Shown one piece after another: positions 9,973 to 52,061 of a stretch of DNA of 64,000 bases. The stretch is taken from contig OZ271831.1 in assembly GCA_965601455.1 (NCBI GenBank), positions 3,816,268 through 3,880,267 of the forward strand, written 5' to 3'. The position numbers and the translations under genes were made by a program. Position 1 is the first letter of the stretch. Every line of letters starts with the position of its first letter. This DNA comes from Cyclobacteriaceae bacterium. GTDB lineage: Bacteria; Bacteroidota; Bacteroidia; Cytophagales; Cyclobacteriaceae. The notes under the pieces were generated by a model that saw only the letters and a program-made list of their open reading frames with translations, had not been told where the DNA came from and ran no database searches.

Positions 9973-10248
9973 GATCTTTCGATTTTTAAATTCAACATCC
10001 TTCTTTCGTGAATTCACGGAGCTTGGACACCGAAGCGAATGAAAAGGTTACAGCTTCAGACAGAATTTTTAGAAAAACACAATTGGACTTAAGAGATTGA
10101 TTATTGATTGAGCACGGGATCTGATTTCCATTGGATTGAAGGCCAAGTAGCGTATTCAATTACGTAGAATGCCCCGGAGATATTTTCGAAAGTATTGCTT
10201 GATTTGACAATCGACTATAATTGAAATACGTATATCGACAGAGAAATA

Positions 10249-11109
10249 GTGACTGTAATGCTAGAAACCTACGTAAGAAAAGTTCTCACACTCTGCTGGC
10301 CCCTTTTATCCGCACTCTTTTTCATCTCATGTGTTGGCGAAAAGGAGGATATACCTTTCATTGACACGCTTCAGTTACCAAGGGAAATTTTTATATTGAA
10401 TGCTGGAATCGGATATTCTAACGGTGAGGAAATAGTAATAGGTGATTCCACCGTAATTACAGTGAACTATCGTGACGAAAAAATACGTTCAGTCACGTTA
10501 GAAAGACGAGGAATTGACTCGGACGATTTTGGTGCTTTTAGTCGCTCGTACGTGTTAAACATCGATACTGAGTACAATAATCGGGAACTTTATAAAATGA
10601 ATCTTTCTGCATTTGATGGTGAACAGAAAGTTCGAATTAGCTACGAAGGAGGTAAACCCTCAATAGTACAAACGTCTATCCAAGGCATCTCCCAGGAATT
10701 CATCATTGAAAAAAGATACTTCTACGATTCCGAAGAAAATCTGACTTCCATAGAGGAATGGAGGAATGATTTCAATGCCGATCTCAGTTTGGACCTTTGG
10801 GAGAGTACTATCCTTACATACCAGGATGGCAATGTAACTGGTATATCCAGGTTTGATGGAAGAAACGGTCAATTGGTGCAGGAAAGCGTACTTACATATG
10901 ACTCAACAAGCAATCCACTTAAAGGTAGACTCGGTCTTTTATTGCCCCCCTTTAATGATTATATCCCCTTGGAGTTTTTCTTAAGTTCTCACCTCGTCAA
11001 GAATTCTGACTTGAATTGTGCGGATCTCGGTTATGAACAAGCTGAAAATGAACTTCAGATATACAGAGATGACTGTTACCGCAAGGAGCAATTTATTTTT
11101 AGATTTTGA
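10249..11109 (+). CDS. Hypothetical lipoprotein
   Basis: It has a lipobox (LFFISC). I recognise no domain. Confidence 0.4.
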   Translation: MTVMLETYVRKVLTLCWPLLSALFFISCVGEKEDIPFIDTLQLPREIFILNAGIGYSNGEEIVIGDSTVITVNYRDEKIRSVTLERRGIDSDDFGAFSRSYVLNIDTEYNNRELYKMNLSAFDGEQKVRISYEGGKPSIVQTSIQGISQEFIIEKRYFYDSEENLTSIEEWRNDFNADLSLDLWESTILTYQDGNVTGISRFDGRNGQLVQESVLTYDSTSNPLKGRLGLLLPPFNDYIPLEFFLSSHLVKNSDLNCADLGYEQAENELQIYRDDCYRKEQFIFRF

Positions 11110-40325: not shown

Positions 40326-40352
40326 AGCCGGAGCATAGCTCTGGCTTTTTTT
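40326..40352 (+). terminator. Rho-independent terminator after yceI-like gene
   Basis: agccggagc-ata-gctctggct followed by tttttt. Confidence 0.6.
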
Positions 40353-40923
40353 ATTTATTCTGTAGCCTTTCAACTGGTATAACAAGGTCTTGCTTTGGAA
40401 TGAACTCTGGTATTCCACCTGGAAATCTACAATACATAATGTATTCCTTTTTCAATCTACCATAGCCTTTTATGATGGTAGATTGTCTACTCTTTTCAAT
40501 CCCGGCGGCCAATCCACCAGTTAATAAGGTCGCTGCACTTATCACAAGAAACCCGGGTTCTCCATGCATCATAGCTCCCAATAATGAGGGTGTTAATGCA
40601 ACCATTGTGAAACCCATAGTTTTCCTTGCCCTATTCTGGACCGGATGAATCTCATAATTCTTGATCTTTCTTTGATTCACCGATTTTATTCCATTCAATT
40701 CCATAACGCAAACTGAATCAGAGTCGAAACTGATTAACTCCCCTTTCACGATTACGTCCCCTAATGCAATTTCTATCCATGACCCGAACGTACTGTTTTC
40801 TATATAGGTATCGGACCGGCTTGAATGAACCGGCACTACCATATTATAATATTTAGCCTCCGGAGAGCAGCTAGATAGAGTGATGTATAGAAGTAGGGAT
40901 AACCTATTTATCCAAGTAATCAT
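40351..40923 (-). CDS. Hypothetical lipoprotein with a glycine-zipper-like membrane segment
   Basis: The ATG at 40923 gives MITWINRLSLLLYITLSSC (lipobox). A later segment reads GFTMVALTPSLLGAMMHGEPGFLVISAATLLTGGLAAG. Confidence 0.4.
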   Translation of the reverse strand: MITWINRLSLLLYITLSSCSPEAKYYNMVVPVHSSRSDTYIENSTFGSWIEIALGDVIVKGELISFDSDSVCVMELNGIKSVNQRKIKNYEIHPVQNRARKTMGFTMVALTPSLLGAMMHGEPGFLVISAATLLTGGLAAGIEKSRQSTIIKGYGRLKKEYIMYCRFPGGIPEFIPKQDLVIPVERLQNK

Positions 40924-42496
40924 CACTATTGAATTTACTTTTCCAGAACAAAGAATCCATCTTATCCTCAACTTTTACATAATCAGGAGTCATCAGTTTT
41001 AACCACTTGTTCGGATTGAATATTAGTGTTCTCACCATATTCTGATCTTCGCATTTTAACCATTCACTTCGCATCCACTCCACGTAATAGCCTTCAGAAC
41101 GTATAAATGGTGTTACACCACTGGGTAATTCAAAAACCAGTAATTGTGAGTCTCCGGGTTGGTTAACCTTATACAAGTCGTTGGAAGTGTATAACCGCAA
41201 GTCTTTTTCACTTGCTTCATAGTTTACCAAAACCTCTTTAGGGTAAATAATGCTGAAATCAAGAGGTGATACTATGGATGCCACCTGAACAGCATCTATT
41301 CTCCACAAACCTTTGGTAAAGGTCAATCTCACTCTTGAGAAGCTTCCGTCTCGTTCCACAGGTAATAAATGACTTTCTGAAGCAATTGGACCTTGTTCGT
41401 TAATTATGCCAATGCTGACCCATTGATTATCCATCCAAACACTTACTTCGATTCCCCCTAAAATATCATAGATGGTCTTCTGTGCGGATCGAACCCTCGG
41501 ATCAGATCGTTCATATTTCGCAATCCATTCACCTATCCTTGAACCCATCTGCCCCATAGCCTCATAAAAGAGAAATGTAGTCATGAGAGATTGCCTTTTG
41601 GTGACTATTACGCTACCAACTTGCCCGTCTTGCTCAGGGAATTCCAAAACGATAGATTCTCTGGTAGCCAGATGTATAGAGTCACTTTTACTTAGATATT
41701 CGCGCTTGTCTATTTTTTGAAGATGAGATAATTCAACTATACTACCACCATCAATACCAATGGCCATTGATGGTTTATTGGTGCCAAGAAACTGGCTTTC
41801 ACCCCAGTATACGTTAAGTTTTTGTGGATTATGCACGCCGAGGATCTCCACCTTTTTGATGTAGTGTGTTTCCATGGCTTCGTTTTTTACTTTGAGTAAA
41901 AGCTCACTGCCACCATCGACATAATTTGGTAGAGGATCGATATCCTCCTCTTCTAAAGAACGCGAAATACTTGATGAGAAACCCTCAGCTTGCAGTATCT
42001 CTTCCCCGTCATTCATTAGATAGAAAGTAGGGCATGAACCAAAACATGACTTTGGATTCATGATGCAATAGATTGCTCCTATACCTGTGAAGGTGGTTAA
42101 GGTCATTAGCATAGGCGAAATCAGGTTCCAGCCTTTGGTCTCATTAACCTCAATCAGGACAATATCATCGAAGTTTAGTGTGATGTTTTCCAAAGACCAT
42201 TTAGTGCCTCCAATTCTTGATCGATTAATCCCGAATTCATAGCCCTTACATATTAATTCCTGATTTTCATGATCAACCACTATCACCTCAGCTACATACA
42301 AGTGTCCTTTTCTATCATGAATTTTAACTTTATCCGGTTTATTAAGAGTATAGCTTTCTTGCCCAATCAGGGATTCAATCTCTTCAACTTCTACCACCGA
42401 TCGATTAACCGCTATTTTGTAGGTACAGGAGTAAACACTCCATATAAAAAAGGCTAAAAAAAGGCCAAAAAGGGAATATTTTGACCAATTAGACAT
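40904..42496 (-). CDS. Hypothetical lipoprotein (530 aa)
   Basis: It has a signal/lipobox (FIWSVYSC) and no recognised domain. Confidence 0.45.
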   Translation of the reverse strand: MSNWSKYSLFGLFLAFFIWSVYSCTYKIAVNRSVVEVEEIESLIGQESYTLNKPDKVKIHDRKGHLYVAEVIVVDHENQELICKGYEFGINRSRIGGTKWSLENITLNFDDIVLIEVNETKGWNLISPMLMTLTTFTGIGAIYCIMNPKSCFGSCPTFYLMNDGEEILQAEGFSSSISRSLEEEDIDPLPNYVDGGSELLLKVKNEAMETHYIKKVEILGVHNPQKLNVYWGESQFLGTNKPSMAIGIDGGSIVELSHLQKIDKREYLSKSDSIHLATRESIVLEFPEQDGQVGSVIVTKRQSLMTTFLFYEAMGQMGSRIGEWIAKYERSDPRVRSAQKTIYDILGGIEVSVWMDNQWVSIGIINEQGPIASESHLLPVERDGSFSRVRLTFTKGLWRIDAVQVASIVSPLDFSIIYPKEVLVNYEASEKDLRLYTSNDLYKVNQPGDSQLLVFELPSGVTPFIRSEGYYVEWMRSEWLKCEDQNMVRTLIFNPNKWLKLMTPDYVKVEDKMDSLFWKSKFNSDDYLDK

Positions 42497-42542: not shown

Positions 42543-42590
42543 CTAGGAATGCATCCAACCCTGTGCTTGGAGCTCCACTGTGTCCCTTAA
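42543..42590 (-). pseudogene. Displaced remnant of the thiL 3' end (last ~15 codons plus stop)
   Basis: The minus-strand translation is LRDTVELQAQGWMHS*, against the intact thiL C-terminus QNVVELQAQGWKHFE*. At the DNA level, 42548-42578 matches 51032-51062 at 28/31. Confidence 0.6.
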
Positions 42591-42621: not shown

Positions 42622-42659
42622 CCTAAAGTATCTGCGACAAATCCTAAAGTCTGTGCGAC
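42622..42659 (+). promoter_or_regulatory. Tandem direct repeat, 17 bp - 4 bp - 17 bp (CCTAAAGTATCTGCGAC aaat CCTAAAGTCTGTGCGAC); candidate AraC-type activator site
   Basis: The two 17-mers are 15/17 identical with a 21-bp period. The element ends 75 nt upstream of the ATG at 42735 and about 32 nt upstream of a TAnnTTTG-like box (tattttta, 42691-42698). The same architecture occurs at 50667-50704. Confidence 0.5.
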
Positions 42660-42734: not shown

Positions 42735-44846
42735 ATGATCGAACAAAAAGGTTTTGTCTTGACACAAGAAAATAATTTGCGTAATTTCATTGGGACCAAC
42801 CGGCCTCAACCACCGATGAATCATCCGGAAAAATCCGATCCTGCCAAAGATCATGGAAGTAATGATCCCGTTTCCATGGATGAAGTTTTTCTTGAAAAGA
42901 TCAAAAAGGCTATTGACGAAAACCTTGAAACCAGGAATTTTGGGGTAGACGAACTTGGGAAGGAAATCGGTATGAGCCGTTCGCAGATTCATCGAAAAAT
43001 GCAGGCTCTGGGTGACATCTCACCTTCCAAGTACATCAGAACAAGAAAACTACAAAAAGCTAGAGAATACTTGCAAAAAAACGTAGGCAACGTATCCGAA
43101 ATATCGTTCCGTCTTGGATTTAGTAGCCCAGCCTACTTTACACAAGTATACACCGCTGAATTTGGTTATCCTCCTAGTGAAGAAGAACGAATAAGTCCTG
43201 CGGAAGCAGCAAAACTAATTCTATCGAAAGACGGTAAAGGTTCCACGCGAAAACTGGCCGCGATCATGTTTACGGATATCGTCGGATATACTACGTTGAT
43301 GGGCAAGAACGAACAAAAAGGCCTCGAGATACTTCGCCAGAGTCGTGAAATCCAAAAACCATTAGTAGAAGCGAATGGAGGAAAATGGCTAAAGGAAATG
43401 GGGGATGGTGTGCTCACACAGTTCGATAGCGCATATGATTGTGTACTCTGTGCTCTGCGAATTCAAAGAGCCGCGACCATGGGATTCGAGGCTAAAATTC
43501 GAATAGGTATTCACCTGGGAGACATTACTATCGAAGGCGATGATGTTTTTGGTGACGGAGTTAACATAGCCTCAAGATTGCAGGACATTGCCGATCCGGG
43601 AGGTATCTACATCTCAGAATCTATTCAAAAGGCATTACGGGGTCGATCGGAAATCCAATACCAACACCTAGGTGAGATCCAGCTCAAAAACGTCGATTAC
43701 CTGGTTAACACTTTTTGCCTGGTTGATGAAAGTCTACCCTCCCCTGCCGCATCCAGAATTCAAAAACTACGTGCCTCCAGCATTCGCGACACACATGCCC
43801 CACTATCCAATGTAAATGATGAACTTATCTTGGAAGTTTTTGACGAATTGACCCGGGCCAAACCTTCTGTTAAACGCTACCTCGAGATCCTCGAAGAGGA
43901 GGAGGAAGAACCAGATATTCGGGAGCTGGCGGATCTCATCATTAGAAACTATCCATGGATTATTGGTGTGGAACTCCGTAGGCTATTCTCAGGATCACTG
44001 CGGGCATTGGATAAGGACCGATTAGAACAAATACTCACTACCATCCACCGCTCCTTACAGTTCTTAGCCTATCTCTTAATCATTGAGCTCTACGAAAGAA
44101 TACTGGATGGCTCGATATCCGTCAACCCTGATTTTCAGACCAATTTCAAATCTCGATTCCTGGAACTTTCACATGACGACTATCTGTGGATTATCGCCGA
44201 GACAAACCAGGTAATGAAGGGAATTGACAGGTTCATTCCTGAGCTCTCGGAAAATATTGATGAACAGTTTATCCAAGGACTGGAATTGGAAATCCCAAAA
44301 CGGGACTATACCGGTGGGTTTAAGATAGAATTGAATGAAGAGGAACTGGCAAAAAAATGCTTCGAATACCAGGAAGTACTCACCTTCATTTTAAAACGAC
44401 TGGCTGTCCTTACTCCTTATAAGCTTGTCACTATCAAAGAGATTAAAGTATTAAAGACCCGAAGGGAAAAGGCCCTGTTTGAGCATTGGATGGATATTCT
44501 GAGCAACAACAATTCGGATTTCCGCTCCAAGGAAGAAACATTCGATTCATTCTCGGACAGCAATTCCGTTTTGCTCATGAAAAGTCTGAAACGACCAGAC
44601 CATTTCCTGAATTTATCGCCATTTATTATCGATACTCGGGGTGAATCAATGGATTCGCGGGAAAAGTTTGATCTTAAAAAAGACATATTCGTTTGTGAAG
44701 GACTGGCAAATAACAGCCTTAGATACGTAGGGACCGAAATAGCGGAAGAATGTGATCTTGGAAGCCTAAGCAACTATCAAAAACTGGTAGAGGAATTTCG
44801 GGACATCACGAACCTTGATGGAAGCGCGAAAGGAGGTGAATCATGA
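42735..44846 (+). CDS. AraC-type HTH + class III adenylate/guanylate cyclase domain + C-terminal alpha-helical domain of unknown function
   Basis: The HTH spans about aa 48-147 (GMSRSQIHRKMQALGDISPSKYIRTRKLQKAREYL...ISFRLGFSSPAYFTQVYTAEFGYPPSE). The cyclase spans about aa 173-330 (AAIMFTDIVGYTTLMG, WLKEMGDGVL, IRIGIHLGDI, DDVFGDGVNIASRL). The remaining ~340 aa are helical with no recognised family. Confidence 0.85.
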   Translation: MIEQKGFVLTQENNLRNFIGTNRPQPPMNHPEKSDPAKDHGSNDPVSMDEVFLEKIKKAIDENLETRNFGVDELGKEIGMSRSQIHRKMQALGDISPSKYIRTRKLQKAREYLQKNVGNVSEISFRLGFSSPAYFTQVYTAEFGYPPSEEERISPAEAAKLILSKDGKGSTRKLAAIMFTDIVGYTTLMGKNEQKGLEILRQSREIQKPLVEANGGKWLKEMGDGVLTQFDSAYDCVLCALRIQRAATMGFEAKIRIGIHLGDITIEGDDVFGDGVNIASRLQDIADPGGIYISESIQKALRGRSEIQYQHLGEIQLKNVDYLVNTFCLVDESLPSPAASRIQKLRASSIRDTHAPLSNVNDELILEVFDELTRAKPSVKRYLEILEEEEEEPDIRELADLIIRNYPWIIGVELRRLFSGSLRALDKDRLEQILTTIHRSLQFLAYLLIIELYERILDGSISVNPDFQTNFKSRFLELSHDDYLWIIAETNQVMKGIDRFIPELSENIDEQFIQGLELEIPKRDYTGGFKIELNEEELAKKCFEYQEVLTFILKRLAVLTPYKLVTIKEIKVLKTRREKALFEHWMDILSNNNSDFRSKEETFDSFSDSNSVLLMKSLKRPDHFLNLSPFIIDTRGESMDSREKFDLKKDIFVCEGLANNSLRYVGTEIAEECDLGSLSNYQKLVEEFRDITNLDGSAKGGES

Positions 44847-47737
44847 CTGCTCAGTCTCCATTCAAATTTCTTGATAGTTATACCGAACAGGATCGTGAGA
44901 TATTTTTTGGAAGAGACCAGGAAATTGAGGAAGTCTACAAGAAAGTGTTCCAGGGTCAGACCCTTTTCATCTACGGCGAATCCGGGACCGGCAAATCAAG
45001 TTTGATCAGTTGTGGGCTGGCTAATCGATTCAAGAAATCCGATTGGTTACCCGTTCATGTCCGTCGTGGGGAAAATATCAATGAATCTCTAACACGTGAA
45101 ATAAAGAAAACCGGTTTGACAGACATAAGCCTCAATGGAGACTCAAGGAATAACCTGTTCAAACTTACAAGATCCCTCTATCTGGATTTCTTCAAACCCA
45201 TCTATTTCATTTTTGATCAATTTGAGGAATTATATCTGCTGGGAGATAAAGAGGAATGGGAAGAATTCGTGGGTGGCATTAAAGCACTTTCCGAAAAGGA
45301 ATTGAATGTTCATTTCATCTTTATCATCCGCTCAGAATACCTGCATTTTCTATCCGAATTCGAATACGAGTTACCGGAAATCTTTAACAATAAGATTCGC
45401 GTGGAGAAAATCACTCGAACAAAAGCCAGGGAGTGCATTGAAGGACCGTGCAATGTATTTGACATAGAACTTGAAAAGGACTTCACGGATCAACTTTTTG
45501 ATAAGCTAAGCCCTGACAGCATAGAAGTAGAGCTTACCTATTTGCAGGTTTACCTGGATCGCGTGTATAAGCTTGCAAGTTCTAAAGCCGAGGACGATAA
45601 GGTGGTTTTCTCCAATTCTCTACTGGAGGATATTGGACTCGTGAGTGACGTACTATCTGATTTTCTGGATGAGCAAATTGAGGAAATGCCCAATCAGGAA
45701 TCTGCTCTAAACACACTAAAGGCATTTGTTACGGTTGATGGTACCAAGAAACAGGTGAACACTGAGGAGGTTGTCAGCTTTGCCCAGTCCATAGGGAAGA
45801 GTTTAAATGAGGTACAAGCACAGCAGGTAATCAATGAGTTGCTTGAGAGAAGAATTCTTAAGGAGATTCCGGACCTCAAAAAATTTGAACTTCGGCACGA
45901 TGCGCTTGCCCTGAAGATATATGAGAAGATCACTATTCGTGAACGTGAACTGATCGAGGTTAAGCAATTCCTGGAATATGGACTGGCAGAGTATCAAAAA
46001 CGGAAATTCCTACTTAACGATAAAGACCTGGCATACATCGAACCTCATTTGCCTCAACTCAACCTGAGAGGGGAAATAAAGGAGTTTGTGGACGAAAGCA
46101 TGGATCAGGCCGGCAGAAAGCGAAGAATTCGAAAGCGTGTTATAGCGATTGTTGCCATTATAATTATCCTCCTGATCACCTCTGTAATCGGATTTATACT
46201 TGCCCAACAGCAACGTGAGCAAGCGTTACTCCAAAAAGAAATCGCTGAAGAAAATGCGTATGAGGCAGAAGAGCAGAAAAAGCTCGCAGAAATCAATGCC
46301 TCTTTGGCTGTAGAAGCCCAGGATGAGGCCGAAAAAAATGCCGAAGAAGCTTCCAGGCAGGCATTCATAGCCCAGGAAAATGAACAACTCGCAAAGGAAC
46401 AGGCATCAATCGCAGAACAACAAAGGAGTCTGGCTCAAGAGCAACGAGTAGAAGCAGAATCACAAAGAGAACAGGCTATTGAGCAACGACAAATAGCCGA
46501 AAATCAGCGCCGAAGAGCGGAAGAACAAACAGTAATTGCCCAGGAAGCCCTGCAACAAATAGAGAAATTAAGGATTCTATCAAATGCTGTAAGCCTGGCT
46601 AATAAGTCTATTGCTTTACGACAGGAACCTTTGAAAAGTCAACTGGCCCTTCAAGCCTATTCATTTTACTCTTCTCAGCCTGTCGAGGGCAGAAACTCTT
46701 CAATACTAAATGCCCTGCACTTCGCCATGAAAAGTCAATTTGGGCCCGAGTACAACGTACTTCAGGGACATACGGGTAGAATCAATCAGATTCACTTATC
46801 GAATAATGACTTTTTCTCCCTGGAAGATGCGGGCAAACTACTTCAGTGGACGATGGCTGACGGGAAATTTGAGAGCCACGAGTTCATGAAAATTGAGGAG
46901 ACTTCCGGGATCAGCCGTAGGGTAAACGCATTATCCGAAAATAACGAGGGTCACTTTCTGGTCAGTACAGGATCTAATCTCTTTTGGTACATTCGAGAGG
47001 AGGTATTAACTCCCATCGAACTCAAGCAATTTAAGGGAACAGTTATCAAAATTCTTCCGGGCGATTCGATATGGACCATTTTATCCAGTGATCAGATCGT
47101 CACCCTATCCATTAATGACGACAATTCTTTAAACACCAGGTACCGACAGTTCGAAACTCAAATTGTAGATGCAGCTCGATTCAATGATGAATACTTGCTT
47201 CTTAGCCAGGAAGGGGTAAGTATTTACGACCGAACAAGGGACTCAGTTCGCAATACCAACTATACTCTGGAACCATTTCCAACCAAGATCGCATACTCAG
47301 CTAAAAGAAATGAAGTGGCTATTGGGAACGGCGAAGGACAGGTAATCCTATACAATCCGGATGACCAACAAATCATTGAACGGTTTCCCGGACATACATC
47401 CATCATTTCTGTACTGCAATTCTCAGACACTGACAACAAGCTCATATCAGCGGGATTTGATCGAGTAGTCAATATCTGGGACCTGGAAGACTTTGGCCAG
47501 GAACCGCTTCAATTCGCGGATCATGATCAGTTTGTCACTGCCGTTGGATACAGTTTGGTCAATCAGTTAATCGTGGTTGGTGAAATAGACGGAACCTTAA
47601 ACTACTATAACCTGGACTCCGATGTGTCCTACAAGCGTTTATGCCAATCGGTTGACGAAGCGATGAATGCTGCAACCTGGGAAAGGTATGTCGGAAATGA
47701 ATTTGAATATAACCCCTATAAATGCGAAGAAAAATGA
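44843..47737 (+). CDS. STAND-class P-loop NTPase (nSTAND1-like) - single TM - long coiled coil - WD40 beta-propeller
   Basis: The N-terminus is SPFKFLDSYTEQDREIFFGRDQEIEEV, with Walker A GESGTGKSS and Walker B IYFIFDQFEEL. A winged-helix-like FELRHDALALKIY follows. A basic cluster RKRRIRKR precedes the TM helix VIAIVAIIIILLITSVIGFILA (aa 433-454). An ~125-aa Q/E/A-rich coiled coil comes next. WD40 blades include GHTGRINQIH...LLQW and GHTSIISVLQFSDTDNKLISAGFDRVVNIWDL. The start overlaps the upstream stop (ATGA). Confidence 0.8.
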   Translation: MTAQSPFKFLDSYTEQDREIFFGRDQEIEEVYKKVFQGQTLFIYGESGTGKSSLISCGLANRFKKSDWLPVHVRRGENINESLTREIKKTGLTDISLNGDSRNNLFKLTRSLYLDFFKPIYFIFDQFEELYLLGDKEEWEEFVGGIKALSEKELNVHFIFIIRSEYLHFLSEFEYELPEIFNNKIRVEKITRTKARECIEGPCNVFDIELEKDFTDQLFDKLSPDSIEVELTYLQVYLDRVYKLASSKAEDDKVVFSNSLLEDIGLVSDVLSDFLDEQIEEMPNQESALNTLKAFVTVDGTKKQVNTEEVVSFAQSIGKSLNEVQAQQVINELLERRILKEIPDLKKFELRHDALALKIYEKITIRERELIEVKQFLEYGLAEYQKRKFLLNDKDLAYIEPHLPQLNLRGEIKEFVDESMDQAGRKRRIRKRVIAIVAIIIILLITSVIGFILAQQQREQALLQKEIAEENAYEAEEQKKLAEINASLAVEAQDEAEKNAEEASRQAFIAQENEQLAKEQASIAEQQRSLAQEQRVEAESQREQAIEQRQIAENQRRRAEEQTVIAQEALQQIEKLRILSNAVSLANKSIALRQEPLKSQLALQAYSFYSSQPVEGRNSSILNALHFAMKSQFGPEYNVLQGHTGRINQIHLSNNDFFSLEDAGKLLQWTMADGKFESHEFMKIEETSGISRRVNALSENNEGHFLVSTGSNLFWYIREEVLTPIELKQFKGTVIKILPGDSIWTILSSDQIVTLSINDDNSLNTRYRQFETQIVDAARFNDEYLLLSQEGVSIYDRTRDSVRNTNYTLEPFPTKIAYSAKRNEVAIGNGEGQVILYNPDDQQIIERFPGHTSIISVLQFSDTDNKLISAGFDRVVNIWDLEDFGQEPLQFADHDQFVTAVGYSLVNQLIVVGEIDGTLNYYNLDSDVSYKRLCQSVDEAMNAATWERYVGNEFEYNPYKCEEK

Positions 47738-48768
47738 GAAAATCATCTATCGTTCCCATTTTAATCATCTTACTGGTTCTGGTAGCTAATCCAGCAAAGT
47801 CCCAATGCGGAAAAAACCTGGAGGACGCTAGACGAGCGTATTACAATGGAGATTTCAGATCAGTGGAATCTTTGCTTGAAGACTGCTTGGAAACATTCTC
47901 GGACGAAGAGAAAATCGAAGCATACAAGCTTTTAACCAACATGTATCTCCTTTGGAATAACCAGGAAAAAGCTGATCAATCAATGTTCAGGTTTTTGGAA
48001 TTGAATCCATACTATACCTTGAGGGAGAGCGACCTGGTAGAATTCCAGGAACTGCATAAGGAGTACAAGGTAAAGACCCGGTTCACATACGGATTCAGTG
48101 TTGGATACCTGCATTCGGATTACATCATCATGCAACATCAGAGCCTGGCAGGAACCACTGAGGAGCCAGCGGATTACAAGGAATTTCCGGGGATTATCGT
48201 AGGAGTCACCGGTGATTATCGCTTGTATAAAGATTTCTATGCAAATGTCGGCCTCTTGTATTCACGAAGGAGCATGAGGCAGCAGGAAGAGATTCTCGAA
48301 TACCAAAAGGTAGCCAGCTTCGAGAAAGACCATTTCCTAAACATCCCCCTCCAAATTCGATACATCGCAGATTTTCGTACCATAAAGCCTTTTTTGGGAG
48401 GGGGTTATGGTGCACACATTCTGTTGCAATCCCAGGGAGATATTGATCGGATTCCACTAGAACCCGATTTTCCTAGTATTGTAGGAATAGCCGAGCAGAC
48501 CACTGACTATAACCTCACCAAACAAAGGCGAAAGTTGACGCATAATTGGAATGCCAGTACAGGTGTAATTATCGACTTCAATCAGTTTCTGGTAGAATTA
48601 AAAGCTACCTATCAATTGGGCATTAACAATGAAATCAACAGGAATTACTGGCTGAAGAATACGGAATTAACCGAAGTCTATGCCTTCGTCTCTGATGACT
48701 ATCGGATTGATAGTTACCTGTTTACGATCTCCCTATTAAGAAATATTTCTAACCCCATAAAGAATTGA
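47722..48768 (+). CDS. Secreted TPR-like N-domain + outer-membrane beta-barrel (PorT/OMP_b-brl-like) protein
   Basis: It has a signal peptide (IVPILIILLVLVANPAKSQ). A TPR-like segment follows (ARRAYYNGDFRSVESLLEDCLE...AYKLLTNMYLLWNNQEKADQSMFRFLELNPYY). The rest shows amphipathic beta-strands (FTYGFSVGY, IIVGVTGDYRL, ANVGLLYSR, LNIPLQIRYIA, PFLGGGYGAHILL, FLVELKATYQLGI). An alternative ATG at 47734 gives an ATGA overlap with the upstream stop. Confidence 0.55.
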   Translation: MRRKMRKSSIVPILIILLVLVANPAKSQCGKNLEDARRAYYNGDFRSVESLLEDCLETFSDEEKIEAYKLLTNMYLLWNNQEKADQSMFRFLELNPYYTLRESDLVEFQELHKEYKVKTRFTYGFSVGYLHSDYIIMQHQSLAGTTEEPADYKEFPGIIVGVTGDYRLYKDFYANVGLLYSRRSMRQQEEILEYQKVASFEKDHFLNIPLQIRYIADFRTIKPFLGGGYGAHILLQSQGDIDRIPLEPDFPSIVGIAEQTTDYNLTKQRRKLTHNWNASTGVIIDFNQFLVELKATYQLGINNEINRNYWLKNTELTEVYAFVSDDYRIDSYLFTISLLRNISNPIKN

Positions 48769-48770
48769 TC

Positions 48771-50090
48771 ATGAAAAAGTACATGTACCTATTCTTACTG
48801 ATTTTACTAGTTTCCTGTATTGAAGAATTAGATCCGGTAAATACTAGTTTTGAAAAATTCTACGGATATAACCTTTCATCAGATGACAGTGGATTACTGA
48901 AGCTGGAAAATGGAAACCTTCTGGTTTACGGATCTGCCATACGAACTTCCATGTCAACGTCAGTAACTGACGAAACATTTGCCAGATTATCTACTCTCGC
49001 TCAGGATGCGGAAATGCCATTCTTTATAGAAGTAGATGAAAATGGCAATGAAATCAGGAAAGCCATGTTCCCATTGGGGAATTTCGACTATTCACATAAC
49101 TTCTATGAATTATTTGGGGTTGAAAGTTTAAATACCGAACTGGCTTGGTTTAAGAAAGTAATCCAACTCAATGATGGTTCATTGATGGCGATCACGTCGG
49201 TAGTAACAAACAATTTTTTTTGGGTAGAGGATATAGTACTGATCATTTCTCCAGAGGATTTTCAGGTGAAGGAGCTTTACCTTATGCATAACTCTGAGAC
49301 TGAATTTGTTGAAACTGAATTTGTCCATCGCGGGATTGAAAAATGTCTCAAAAAAGATGATGGCTCAGTACTGTGCTTAACCGATAGTGAATACTATCCT
49401 CCTTACGAGGGAGGATATCGAAAATTCTATTCAATTATTGAATTTGCAGAAGACGGACAAATTAATCGAATATTCGATTTCGACAATGATCTCTCTGGTG
49501 CTTTCTTCATGGACTTCGTTATTGAAAATGAAGGAAATATTACATTGATTCATGGAAATTTCACCAATCCGAACCTCACTTTTGTCAAGGAAATTAACAT
49601 AAATACAGGGAATATACTCAGTGAAAATTCCGTTGAAATCCCTGCCAATTACGATTTCATCCTTAGAGCAAATCACCTCCTCTTACGAACAGAAAATGGG
49701 TATGCAATTCATGCACAAGATCGTGATACGTTTTCTCCGTTATACCTCTTCGACAATTCCTTTACATTATTGGATTCAACCAACTACATAAATAAGCAGG
49801 GAGTTGATGATGTGTGTTACATAAATGGGTTTATCCCTCTCAAGGACGGTGGATTTTGTAGTCTAGGCTACCCTTGCGAAGGGAACTCCGTTATCACAAA
49901 GTTGGACCAAGAAGGAAAAATTTTATGGGAGTTCTATGAAGCTCATAATAACCTGGATGGAAATCTAACCGGGCATTTGATGGAAACTGAAGACGGAGGA
50001 ATACTTCATTTATCCACAAAAAATTTCAACAATTCCGGCGCAAAACTGAGACTTCTTAAATTGGATAGGAATGGAAAAATTAGCAATTAA
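48771..50090 (+). CDS. Hypothetical lipoprotein, possibly beta-propeller-like
   Basis: The ATG at 48771 gives MKKYMYLFLLILLVSC (lipobox). DG-hydrophobic strand motifs recur (NDGSLMAITS, DDGSVLCLTDS, KDGGFCSLGY, EDGGILHLST). Confidence 0.45.
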   Translation: MKKYMYLFLLILLVSCIEELDPVNTSFEKFYGYNLSSDDSGLLKLENGNLLVYGSAIRTSMSTSVTDETFARLSTLAQDAEMPFFIEVDENGNEIRKAMFPLGNFDYSHNFYELFGVESLNTELAWFKKVIQLNDGSLMAITSVVTNNFFWVEDIVLIISPEDFQVKELYLMHNSETEFVETEFVHRGIEKCLKKDDGSVLCLTDSEYYPPYEGGYRKFYSIIEFAEDGQINRIFDFDNDLSGAFFMDFVIENEGNITLIHGNFTNPNLTFVKEININTGNILSENSVEIPANYDFILRANHLLLRTENGYAIHAQDRDTFSPLYLFDNSFTLLDSTNYINKQGVDDVCYINGFIPLKDGGFCSLGYPCEGNSVITKLDQEGKILWEFYEAHNNLDGNLTGHLMETEDGGILHLSTKNFNNSGAKLRLLKLDRNGKISN

Positions 50091-50595
50091 ACTAGTACTC
50101 GTGACTTCTCTTGTATTGAGTTTTGGATGTGACACAAAACTGGATTTAGAAAGAGAACCACTGAACCCATTGCATAATAATTGGCAATTCAATTTCATTC
50201 GAATTGATGATGAATGGCATAGTTTCGTAAATGAAGATTTTGAACCACCCCTATTCGATGAATTGTGGATTGGATGGTATTGGGTTGAATACAATGAAGA
50301 TAACTTTTACGACTTTAGAACAGATCTTTTACCAACTGAATATGGTACCAATGAAAACTATCAACCTGGATACGGGACTTATCAATATTTTCCGGAGGAA
50401 ATGCTATTAATCCATAATCCAGGAATGCCGTATGAAGTTTCCTACAATATCATTGAACTGAGTGATACAATGTTTATCAGGGAATATGAACGAATTATTC
50501 AGGTGGAAAACTTTGATAGTATTCCCATTGGGACTTCCGTTACTTATAGGGAGGTTTTGATTCCAAGAGAAATATACTATTCCGAAGAAGAGTGA
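50071..50595 (+). CDS. Hypothetical small lipoprotein
   Basis: MEKLAIKLVLVTSLVLSFGC (lipobox). It overlaps the upstream gene by 20 nt and is rich in aromatic and acidic residues. Confidence 0.45.
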   Translation: MEKLAIKLVLVTSLVLSFGCDTKLDLEREPLNPLHNNWQFNFIRIDDEWHSFVNEDFEPPLFDELWIGWYWVEYNEDNFYDFRTDLLPTEYGTNENYQPGYGTYQYFPEEMLLIHNPGMPYEVSYNIIELSDTMFIREYERIIQVENFDSIPIGTSVTYREVLIPREIYYSEEE

Positions 50596-50666: not shown

Positions 50667-50704
50667 CCTAAAACACATGCGACAAATCCTTAAATCCATG
50701 CGAC
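50667..50704 (+). promoter_or_regulatory. Second copy of the 17-4-17 direct-repeat motif (CCTAAAACACATGCGAC aaat CCTTAAATCCATGCGAC)
   Basis: It matches 42622-42659 at 30/38, with an identical aaat spacer and a similar 3' flank (GTGATTTT vs GTAATTCT). It lies 42-57 nt upstream of the small lipoprotein gene's candidate start codons. Confidence 0.5.
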
Positions 50705-50746: not shown

Positions 50747-50968
50747 ATGAACCAAACAAAAATGAAAACGATGAAAACTTATTCAATTCTACTAACGGCG
50801 ATTCTTACTCTTGGACTTTTTTCTTGTGAACTGGATGATGCTGATATTCAGCGTGAAGATCCTACGGACAACCTTTCTTTCAATGCCTCAGACCGCGTAA
50901 GTGACCAGGACGATTCAGATGACATAAAAGCTAACAGCGGTGGTCATGTCGAAGGGAACTACAAGTGA
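50747..50968 (+). CDS. Small acidic lipoprotein (about 68-73 aa)
   Basis: MNQTKMKTMKTYSILLTAILTLGLFSC (lipobox) is followed by a D/E/S-rich tail. The start could also be the ATG at 50762. The track's GTG at 50705 lies inside the repeat motif. Confidence 0.4.
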   Translation: MNQTKMKTMKTYSILLTAILTLGLFSCELDDADIQREDPTDNLSFNASDRVSDQDDSDDIKANSGGHVEGNYK

Positions 50969-50988: not shown

Positions 50989-51026
50989 AAAAGCTCGAAT
51001 TTCTTAAGAAATTCGAGCTTTTTTTA
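50989..51026. terminator. Bidirectional terminator: 17-bp perfect palindrome abutting the thiL stop
   Basis: aaaagctcgaatttctt|aagaaattcgagctttt, with a T7 run on the plus strand and T4 on the minus strand. Confidence 0.7.
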
Positions 51027-52061
51027 TTCAAAATGTTTCCAACCCTGCGCTTGGAGCTCCACCACATTCTGACTGCGAGTAACCATCACTTTCCCCTTTT
51101 CTTTCGGGTGCATGTAGCCTATGGTATGAATATCCGGATGATTCTTAAGCTTCTCAAAGTCATCCTGATGAATAGTGAATAGCAACTCGTAATCCTCTCC
51201 CCCATTCAACGCAGCAGCATTGGGATCGATCTGGAACTCTGCTGCAGTCTCAAAAGCCTGCTTGTCGATAGGTAGCTTATCTTCATAGATACTCACTCCA
51301 AGATCAGAGTTCTTACAAATATGGAAGACATCGGATACTAATCCGTCGGATACATCAATCATTGAAGTCGGTTTTACACCTAAATCCTTTAACTCATGAA
51401 TGATATCCATACGTGCATTCGGACGAAGTTGTCTGCCCACTATGTAATTATACTCCTCAAGCTTTGGTTGCATTTCGGGATTGGCCAGGAACTCTTGCTT
51501 TTCTCTCTCAAGTACTTGCAAACCCATATATGCAGCACCTAAATCGCCAGTTACGCATAATATATCTCCATCCTTTGCCCCATTTCTATAAACAATGTCT
51601 TTTTCCACCGCGTAGCCAATGATCGATATGGAAATGACCAAACCAGCTGCAGAAGCGGTAGTGTCCCCCCCGACGATATCAAGATTATAGTTTTTTGCTG
51701 CAGCTTGAATACCTTCATATAGCAACTCCACAGCCTCAACGCTAAAGCGGTTGGATAAACCCAGGTTCACTGTGACCTGATGCGGAATTCCATTCATGGC
51801 TGCTATATCAGATACATTCACCGCTATGGATTTGTATCCGAGGTGTTGCAGTGGCATATACGATAAATCAAAATGTATGCCTTCTAATAACATATCAGAG
51901 CTAATCAGCATCAGCTGACCTTCTTGTCCGCCCAATACCGCCGCATCATCTCCGACACCTTTTATAGTATTGGGTGACTTCGTGGTTATCCCTTTGGAAA
52001 GTCTTTCAATCAATCCAAATTCACCCAAATCGGAGATTTCCGTTCGTTTTTCTTCGCTCAT
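51024..52061 (-). CDS. thiL: Thiamine-monophosphate kinase
   Basis: It has AIR-synthase-related fold motifs (GEFGLIERL, GVGDDAAVL, LISSDMLLEGIHF, GGDTT). Confidence 0.9.
   Translation of the reverse strand: MSEEKRTEISDLGEFGLIERLSKGITTKSPNTIKGVGDDAAVLGGQEGQLMLISSDMLLEGIHFDLSYMPLQHLGYKSIAVNVSDIAAMNGIPHQVTVNLGLSNRFSVEAVELLYEGIQAAAKNYNLDIVGGDTTASAAGLVISISIIGYAVEKDIVYRNGAKDGDILCVTGDLGAAYMGLQVLEREKQEFLANPEMQPKLEEYNYIVGRQLRPNARMDIIHELKDLGVKPTSMIDVSDGLVSDVFHICKNSDLGVSIYEDKLPIDKQAFETAAEFQIDPNAAALNGGEDYELLFTIHQDDFEKLKNHPDIHTIGYMHPKEKGKVMVTRSQNVVELQAQGWKHFE

Follow-up and report, generated by a model that had tools for sequence, protein, structure and literature searches.

Does a protein that carries an AraC-type DNA-binding domain and a class III nucleotide cyclase in one chain act by itself, or does it serve a larger machinery? 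The question is raised by a gene in a 64,000-nucleotide (nt) stretch of DNA from a Cyclobacteriaceae bacterium (GCA_965601455.1, contig OZ271831.1, positions 3,816,268-3,880,267 of the forward strand; hereafter the window). A first-pass annotation had described its 703-residue product as an AraC helix-turn-helix (HTH) fused to a catalytically competent adenylate cyclase, a combination taken to be an unusual one-component design. The chemistry proposed there, i.e. the six catalytic residues and the ATP-type substrate pair, stood up to our analysis, but the context did not: the protein is part of an nSTAND1-linked system and is not self-contained, and it probably acts as the output subunit of a so far uncharacterised sensing system that spans the envelope, rather than as a stand-alone regulator.

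The chain is made up of three modules. In its N-terminal part Pfam identified HTH_18 (residues 76-149, E-value 2.1e-16, above the curated cut-off), and the RamA, SoxS and MarA profiles of NCBIfam cover residues ~52-149 (RamA positions 6-102 of 108), indicating that the entire bipartite AraC DNA-binding domain is present. The usual AraC/XylS layout, with the DNA-binding domain C-terminal behind a companion domain, is not found here, the domain occupying residues ~50-150 of 703. It is followed by Guanylate_cyc (PF00211; residues 175-319, E-value 1.8e-13, 51 bits versus a cut-off of 21.9), and the fusion read from the open reading frame (ORF) is thus borne out. Residues ~320-703 match no Pfam, NCBIfam or PADLOC family; we refer to the third module, residues ~359-703, as the C-domain. 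In an AlphaFold2 model of the whole protein, with a mean predicted local distance difference test score (pLDDT) of 75.7, the pLDDT drops below 50 at residues 153-170 and 347-358, suggesting that the three modules are joined by flexible linkers. The protein has no transmembrane (TM) segment. As part of an explanation that we favour with slightly better than even confidence, we describe it as a cytoplasmic protein composed of a MarA-like DNA-binding domain, an adenylate cyclase resembling Ma1120 and Rv1900c, and a C-domain of ~340 residues, DNA binding and enzymatic activity being predicted from the sequence. Met28 occurs in 11 of the 19 aligned sequences of the orthologue set, so that the true start of the gene could be position 42816, in which case all residue numbers decrease by 27.

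The six residues named as catalytic in the first-pass annotation were found in the protein with exactly those numbers and contexts: D181 in AIMFTDIVGYT, K220 and D224 in KWLKEMGDG, D270 in EGDDVFGDG, and N277 and R281 in VNIASRL. A phmmer search of the PDB sequences returned 3mr7 (E-value 5.4e-27), Ma1120 (7e-15) and Rv1900c (5e-14) with alignments that are free of gaps around the catalytic positions. Counting along the alignment, K220 corresponds to K101 of Ma1120, D270 to D157, N277 to position 164 and R281 to R168, and D181 and D224 pair with the metal-binding Asp residues in the FTDI and GDG motifs of 3mr7 and Ma1120. Mutagenesis of Ma1120 has identified K101 and D157 as substrate-specifying residues with a preference for ATP and position 164 and R168 as transition-state residues, position 164 being Ala in Ma1120 and Asn in most cyclases (PMC4215837). 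Profile match and alignment to solved structures thus place all six residues at canonical and not at non-catalytic positions. When the cyclase part of the AlphaFold model was compared with Ma1120 by Foldseek, the target-normalised TM-score was 0.91-0.92 and the root mean square deviation 1.7-2.1 Å. The window protein shares with Ma1120, Rv1900c (LipJ) and 3mr7 the catalytic fold, the two metal-binding Asp residues, the Lys/Asp pair for adenine and the transition-state Arg, but has the canonical transition-state Asn where Ma1120 has Ala, and its cyclase is flanked by the AraC domain and the C-domain, with no α/β-hydrolase or other known regulatory module. As it aligns with K101/D157 and is conserved in the orthologues, the Lys/Asp pair is of the ATP type, as had been proposed, and adenylate cyclase activity is predicted.

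We searched 5.8 billion protein clusters for relatives of the whole protein and obtained ~20 full-length sequences with 38-65% identity, nearly all of them metagenomic; one partial relative is annotated as Cyclobacteriaceae. A scan of genome contigs with the orthologue alignment, keyed on the cyclase motifs, yielded only cyclase-domain paralogues and no full-length orthologue among the best 80 loci. The hexad D181/D224/K220/D270/N277/R281 is intact in 18 of the 19 aligned full-length orthologues. The exception, P0020, has G/N/N/N/N/K at these positions and is clearly degenerate, N277 being invariant and R281 being kept in 18 of 19. Averaged over 16 close orthologues, identity to the window protein amounts to 73% for the HTH, 72% for the cyclase and 58% for the C-terminal region, compared to 7% for the linker (residues 151-170) and 17% for the first 46 residues. 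These values rule out the C-domain as the most conserved part and indicate that purifying selection acts on the cyclase as strongly as on the DNA-binding domain, which favours retained catalysis. Some relatives (P0020, P0021 and P0134; alignment A1, columns 1-200) carry an extra, degenerate cyclase-like domain N-terminal of the AraC-HTH, and a chain of this type, cyc*-HTH-cyc-C-domain, could form a pseudo-heterodimer like mammalian C1/C2.

The conservation of the hexad bears on an alternative that we consider unlikely, namely that the cyclase is mainly a dimerisation or nucleotide-sensing companion of the AraC domain, replacing the N-terminal domain of AraC, with transcription as the only output and cAMP negligible or incidental. 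AraC-family regulators normally pair their DNA-binding domain with a dimerising ligand-binding domain, and the loss of the hexad in P0020 would fit such a role, but a scaffold would not need the metal-binding and transition-state residues that are kept in all other aligned orthologues of a domain that is as well conserved as this one.

To the C-domain we assigned relatives by a HMMER search of 1.84 billion representatives, which gave 424 proteins at E ≤ 1e-3 and 189 at E ≤ 1e-10. The domain occurs alone, behind an AraC-HTH only, behind AraC-HTH and cyclase, and behind caspase-like proteases. Among close relatives the stand-alone form (~348 residues) is commonest; all of these proteins are annotated as hypothetical and the named sources are Bacteroidota. 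Within 80 longer representatives we counted 58 matches to CHAT, 3 to Peptidase_C14, 8 to HTH_18, 1 to Guanylate_cyc and 2 to nSTAND1. The C-domain is a mobile module, most often located behind CHAT/caspase proteases, and its distribution is patchy: it was found in the genome of the window and, among 60 relatives, in 2. An AlphaFold2 model of the C-domain by itself (79 sequences; pLDDT 88.5, predicted TM-score 0.90) consists of a helical bundle followed by a β-rich subdomain, and a Foldseek search with this model found nothing significant in the PDB (best E-value 0.13, TM-score <0.4) or in BFVD (best E-value 0.13). EACC1 is a domain of ~100 residues with a single TM segment (PMC7159879); we ruled out that the C-domain is an EACC1, as it comprises 340 residues, is soluble and has no Pfam match.

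The cyclase gene is the first of five overlapping genes, the others coding for an nSTAND1-TM-coiled coil-WD40 protein, an outer membrane (OM) barrel and two lipoproteins (Table 1). The cyclase and nSTAND1 genes share 4 nt at the stop of the former and the start of the latter; the nSTAND1 domain comprises residues 6-356 of the 964-residue product (Pfam, E-value 4.2e-38). In four orthologous metagenomic loci (L001-L004) the nSTAND1-WD40 gene is located directly 3' of the cyclase gene in every case, the three contigs that extend far enough continue with an OM-barrel-like gene, and the upstream flanks are mutually unrelated. The five genes are a translationally coupled, conserved operon.

This linkage is not confined to cyclase genes. 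In 10 of 12 distinct loci a C-domain gene adjoins an nSTAND1 gene (the window, L001-L004, L095, L089, the P0368 locus, L096 and L097, the latter being duplicated by L098), i.e. the association of C-domain and nSTAND1 persists irrespective of the module fused to the N-terminus of the C-domain. The stand-alone C-domain gene lies immediately 5' of nSTAND1-WD40 in L089 and immediately 3' of it in the P0368 locus, and in L096 and L097/L098 a CHAT-C-domain gene is followed by nSTAND1. One of the two nSTAND1-positive C-domain proteins, P0158, was inspected; it is N-terminally truncated and constitutes weak evidence for a Rosetta-stone fusion of C-domain and nSTAND1. Some of the nSTAND1 proteins encoded near stand-alone C-domain genes (L088, 13062-15044; P0368 locus) carry the third and fourth domains of GldM and not WD40, and another locus has a gene with a faint GldL_N match close by, which hints at a link to periplasmic modules of the gliding or type IX secretion type.

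The gene linkage is hard to reconcile with a self-contained one-component regulator that senses its own ligand, synthesises cAMP and binds promoters independently of its neighbours. Three modules in one chain, the missing TM segment and boxes upstream of the gene itself would agree with such a design, but the 4-nt overlap with the nSTAND1 gene, the preservation of this pair in all four orthologous loci and the association of the C-domain with nSTAND1 behind any head render it very unlikely. The one-component view of the first-pass annotation had ignored the conserved 340-residue third domain, by which the protein is linked to the translationally coupled NTPase gene.

The fusion of AraC-HTH and cyclase is, moreover, less rare than had been assumed: 24 of the 120 best database matches carry both HTH_18 and Guanylate_cyc, followed by TPR, PEGA with FGE-sulfatase or other C-terminal modules, the same genome encodes a second AraC-cyclase protein, and there is a precedent in proteins that combine a cyclase homology domain with a LuxR-type HTH (CHD+LuxR). 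The fusion is thus only moderately unusual; it recurs in Bacteroidota and is not unique as such. Our literature search yielded no publication on AraC-cyclase fusions. The mycobacterial CHD+LuxR proteins also contain, between cyclase and HTH, a STAND-type ATPase and TPR repeats. Their HTH is C-terminal and of the LuxR type, whereas that of the window protein is N-terminal and of the AraC type, without any LuxR/GerE match, and their ATPase resides in the same chain, whereas the window encodes a separate, membrane-spanning STAND NTPase that would be reached via an adaptor-like domain. The feature common to both is a class III cyclase and an HTH in one polypeptide, as in Rv0386, Rv1358 and Rv2488c (PMC3466318).

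There is also a relationship to the very large family of Bacteroidota receptor cyclases with the order cyclase-TolB-like-TPR, whose cyclase domain is ~65% identical to that of the window protein and some members of which begin with an AraC-HTH (P0022, P0039 and an 868-residue paralogue in the same genome). These proteins carry TM segment and periplasmic sensor in the same chain, whereas the window protein has a soluble C-domain and sensing would be delegated to the separate STAND protein. The HTH and cyclase part is closer to the AraC-cyclase-TolB-TPR proteins (P0022: 48% identity over 41% of the query), which suggests module exchange with this large family. The 868-residue paralogue (C1:1588003-1590609; AraC-HTH, class III cyclase, TM, TolB-like/TPR) has retained the metal-binding Asp residues and the Asn/Arg pair, but Gln and Glu replace Lys and Asp, so that its substrate preference may differ.

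Upstream of the operon lies a candidate AraC box, the direct repeat CCTAAAGTATCTGCGAC-AAAT-CCTAAAGTCTGTGCGAC. At araI1-araI2, AraC binds two 17-bp direct-repeat half-sites with 4 bp between them (21-bp register) that abut the promoter. The geometry of the candidate box, which is known here from its sequence, is the same, but the half-sites are unrelated in sequence and the DNA-binding domain of the window protein is N-terminal. The 17-4-17 repeats noticed in the first-pass annotation are real and conserved: upstream of the orthologues, each of the four loci has a direct repeat that keeps the 21-bp register. The motif is clearly related in L001-L003 (CCTATAATCTTTGCAAC, CCTAAAGTATTTGCGAC and CCTATAAACCTTGCAAC) and more divergent, again with a register of 21 bp, in L004 and in the cyclase-less locus L095. 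In the window and L001-L003 the proximal half-site is directly followed by a T-rich stretch (ATTCT, ATTTTT or ATTTCT), and by direct reading a -7-like element of the CGT(A)TTT type starts ~24-33 nt past the repeat; our script flagged this element only in the window (31 nt; TATTTTTA) and in L001 (28 nt). A search of the 5.03-Mb genome that tolerated up to 4 substitutions found exactly two copies of the double box. Both are located in the island that contains the operon, the second one preceding a small lipoprotein ORF, so that the putative regulon is private to the island. In the flanking sequence covered for L001-L003 we found no equivalent of the second box. A box made up of a direct repeat requires two DNA-binding domains, which would also be in keeping with a cyclase that acts as a dimerising companion of the AraC domain.

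A comparison that bears on the role of the cyclase is offered by a genome of the same genus (G002, locus L095), which contains a homologous five-gene operon (products of 497, 958, 351, 432 and 194 residues). The STAND protein over its full length and the barrel are each 37% identical to their counterparts in the window, and the two lipoproteins 29% each. The first gene aligns to the window HTH (37%) and C-domain (39%), lacks the cyclase and is followed by nSTAND1; the operon is located ~1 Mb from thiL. The basic layout therefore seems to be AraC-HTH plus C-domain, between which a cyclase may or may not be inserted. An AraC-HTH and C-domain without a cyclase fits the companion-domain alternative, but the cyclase-less variant also implies that oligomerisation can already be supplied by the C-domain or the STAND protein.

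Based on architecture and linkage, we infer a mechanism together with its enzymatic activity, DNA binding, direction of regulation, contact between C-domain and STAND protein and nature of the signal, and we regard it as slightly more probable than its negation: the STAND receptor clusters the AraC-cyclase protein and thereby switches on cAMP synthesis and AraC-dependent autoregulation. The TM segment, the coiled coil and the WD40 propeller of the STAND protein, together with the co-translated OM barrel and lipoproteins, suggest that the stimulus is sensed in the envelope; the propeller is predicted to be periplasmic, with the coiled coil as its stalk. STAND NTPases oligomerise on activation, and caspases and class III cyclases act as dimers or by induced proximity, the active site of a class III cyclase requiring a dimer. 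An envelope signal sensed by the WD40 and OM components would drive NTP-dependent oligomerisation of the STAND protein, and the C-domain would dock on the oligomer, gathering copies of the AraC-cyclase protein. As the heads of the C-domain are all modules that work as dimers or by proximity and its STAND partner is constant, docking and clustering is the simplest reading. Since the cyclase requires a dimer and two half-sites call for two AraC domains, clustering would activate both cAMP synthesis and promoter binding. Two promoters would respond, that of the operon itself, resulting in positive feedback, and that of the small lipoprotein gene at the right end of the island, and the targets of cAMP would be among the proteins with a cyclic nucleotide (cNMP)-binding domain, at least 13 of which are encoded elsewhere in the genome, all of them above the Pfam cut-off.

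In a more general and more tentative form, which we hold to be possible though not probable, the system is an NLR-like, trans-envelope STAND receptor with a non-lethal output, in which oligomerisation of nSTAND1 is transmitted by an adaptor domain to outputs that are activated by proximity and can be exchanged for one another, i.e. caspase/CHAT in the sister systems and here AraC and cyclase, which would control a private two-promoter regulon and cAMP.

The relationship to caspase/CHAT systems also gives rise to an alternative in which the operon is an anti-phage or conflict system, the cyclase replaces the caspase/CHAT effector and the cyclic nucleotide serves as an alarm that leads to arrest or death, following the logic of Pycsar and CBASS. 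EACC1-caspase and nSTAND1 conflict systems were described by Kaur, Burroughs, Iyer and Aravind (2020 and 2021): nSTAND1 was defined in counter-invader systems (PMC8195603), and displacement of the caspase by a cNMP cyclase has been noted in such systems (Kaur et al., PMC7159879). The C-domain is mostly fused to CHAT/caspase and found once beside EACC1: in L094 the domain after the caspase is homologous to the window C-domain, and the protein is preceded immediately upstream by EACC1 (10220-10588, G058; PF19953, E-value 2.5e-14), so that this pair is an example of the two-gene system of Kaur et al. whose variable C-terminal part is our C-domain. Likewise, the domain after CHAT in the nSTAND1-linked proteins of L096 and L097 is homologous to it. 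The patchy distribution of the C-domain, the duplicated thiL end that brackets the operon and a match to PycC are further points in favour of a defence function. However, neither the operon in the window nor its upstream genes contain a match to EACC1 or caspase/CHAT, the head being AraC-HTH and cyclase instead, and the PycC match is weak and generic (E-value 1e-7, 29 bits), in agreement with the original prediction of ATP as substrate and not the pyrimidine nucleotides of Pycsar cyclases. The five genes of the operon code for no cNMP-binding effector, nuclease, pore-former or protease, and PADLOC found no system-level match. The STAND protein is membrane-anchored, its sensor is predicted to be periplasmic and is served by a dedicated OM barrel and lipoproteins whose genes follow, in contrast to conflict systems with cytosolic sensors of the Avs type, and an AraC circuit that activates itself is more in keeping with adaptive signalling than with suicide. 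We therefore consider a defence function rather improbable.

Several observations weigh against the clustering mechanism. The contact between C-domain and STAND protein is deduced from gene adjacency and the N-terminally truncated fusion P0158, and two loci depart from this adjacency: L088, in which 5 kb separate the C-domain gene from the nearest nSTAND1 gene, and L094, where the caspase-C-domain gene is preceded by EACC1 and the corresponding distance is 72 kb. The periplasmic location of the WD40 propeller is a topology prediction. We found no cNMP-binding domain in the five operon proteins or the flanking genes, i.e. no cAMP receptor in the island, and, as the cyclase-less operon of G002 shows, the system can do without cAMP, and the cyclase could therefore be accessory. 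Finally, the four sequencing runs that hold the stretch all derive from one sample and include no RNA run.

The borders of the island and some other loci of the genome are described here for completeness. A 25-nt copy of the 3' end of thiL (24 of 25 positions identical) is found at 42554-42578 and 51038-51062, thiL itself being located at 51024..52061 on the minus strand; the duplicated end brackets the whole island of ~8.5 kb like an att footprint, and no recombinase is present. An empty site proving insertion at thiL could not be shown, as three congeners do not preserve the gene order beyond thiL: two of them lack the left-flank gene, and the third has it at a distance of ~1 Mb from thiL. 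The island is directly preceded, at 40351-42496 on the minus strand, by two overlapping genes (530 and 206 residues) that match no Pfam, PADLOC or other family, the 530-residue gene being absent from 2 of 3 congeners. At C1:364757-365293 we found a short cyclase-domain frame that is interrupted by an in-frame stop (VNVT*RIA) and is thus probably a pseudogene; it is located ~300 nt upstream of a cNMP-binding gene (365578-365820; 402-residue frame). A second nSTAND1 match of the genome (337 bits, 1096-residue frame) is much stronger than that in the window and neighbours a 1098-residue polytopic membrane protein with a C-terminal cNMP-binding domain (C1:3436295-3437554 and 3439213-3442509). We ruled out that these two form a cNMP-binding-nSTAND1 fusion, as they are separate genes ~1.7 kb apart.

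Table 1. Features of the AraC-cyclase island (positions are those of the window)
Feature	Position	Strand	Basis or remark
17-4-17 direct repeat, candidate AraC box	42622..42659	+	ends 31 nt upstream of the -7-like element
ORF with AraC-HTH, class III cyclase and nSTAND1-partner C-domain, 703 amino acids (aa)	42735..44846	+	alternative start 42816 (Met28)
Bipartite AraC/XylS (MarA-like) DNA-binding domain, aa ~50-150	42882..43184	+	HTH_18 and RamA/SoxS/MarA profiles
Class III cyclase homology domain, aa ~171-335, with D181/D224, K220/D270 and N277/R281	43245..43739	+	Pfam, phmmer, Foldseek, orthologue identity
C-domain, aa ~359-703, helical bundle and β-rich subdomain	43809..44843	+	no family; partner of nSTAND1 NTPases by gene linkage
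nSTAND1 NTPase, 964 aa, TM ~aa 427-457, Q/E-rich coiled coil, WD40 propeller	44843..47737	+	Pfam, sequence reading
Signal peptide and OM β-barrel (OMP_b-brl_2), 348 aa	47722..48768	+	Pfam, sequence reading
Lipoprotein-like, 441 aa, no Pfam family	48765..50090	+	
Lipoprotein-like, 174 aa, no Pfam family	50071..50595	+	
Second copy of the double box	50667..50704	+	upstream of the small lipoprotein ORF
Acidic lipoprotein-like ORF, 73 aa, putative regulon member	50747..50968	+	sequence read directly

If the clustering model is true, the operon would be a tractable case of a STAND/NLR-type NTPase that drives a second messenger and transcription instead of cell death. The C-domain would be a new adaptor domain with swappable heads, i.e. 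none, AraC, AraC and cyclase, or caspase/CHAT, and the cyclase-less operon of the congener provides a ready natural control. The model would also give a first function to the AraC-cyclase fusions of Bacteroidota, which are annotated only as 'adenylate/guanylate cyclase domain-containing protein'.

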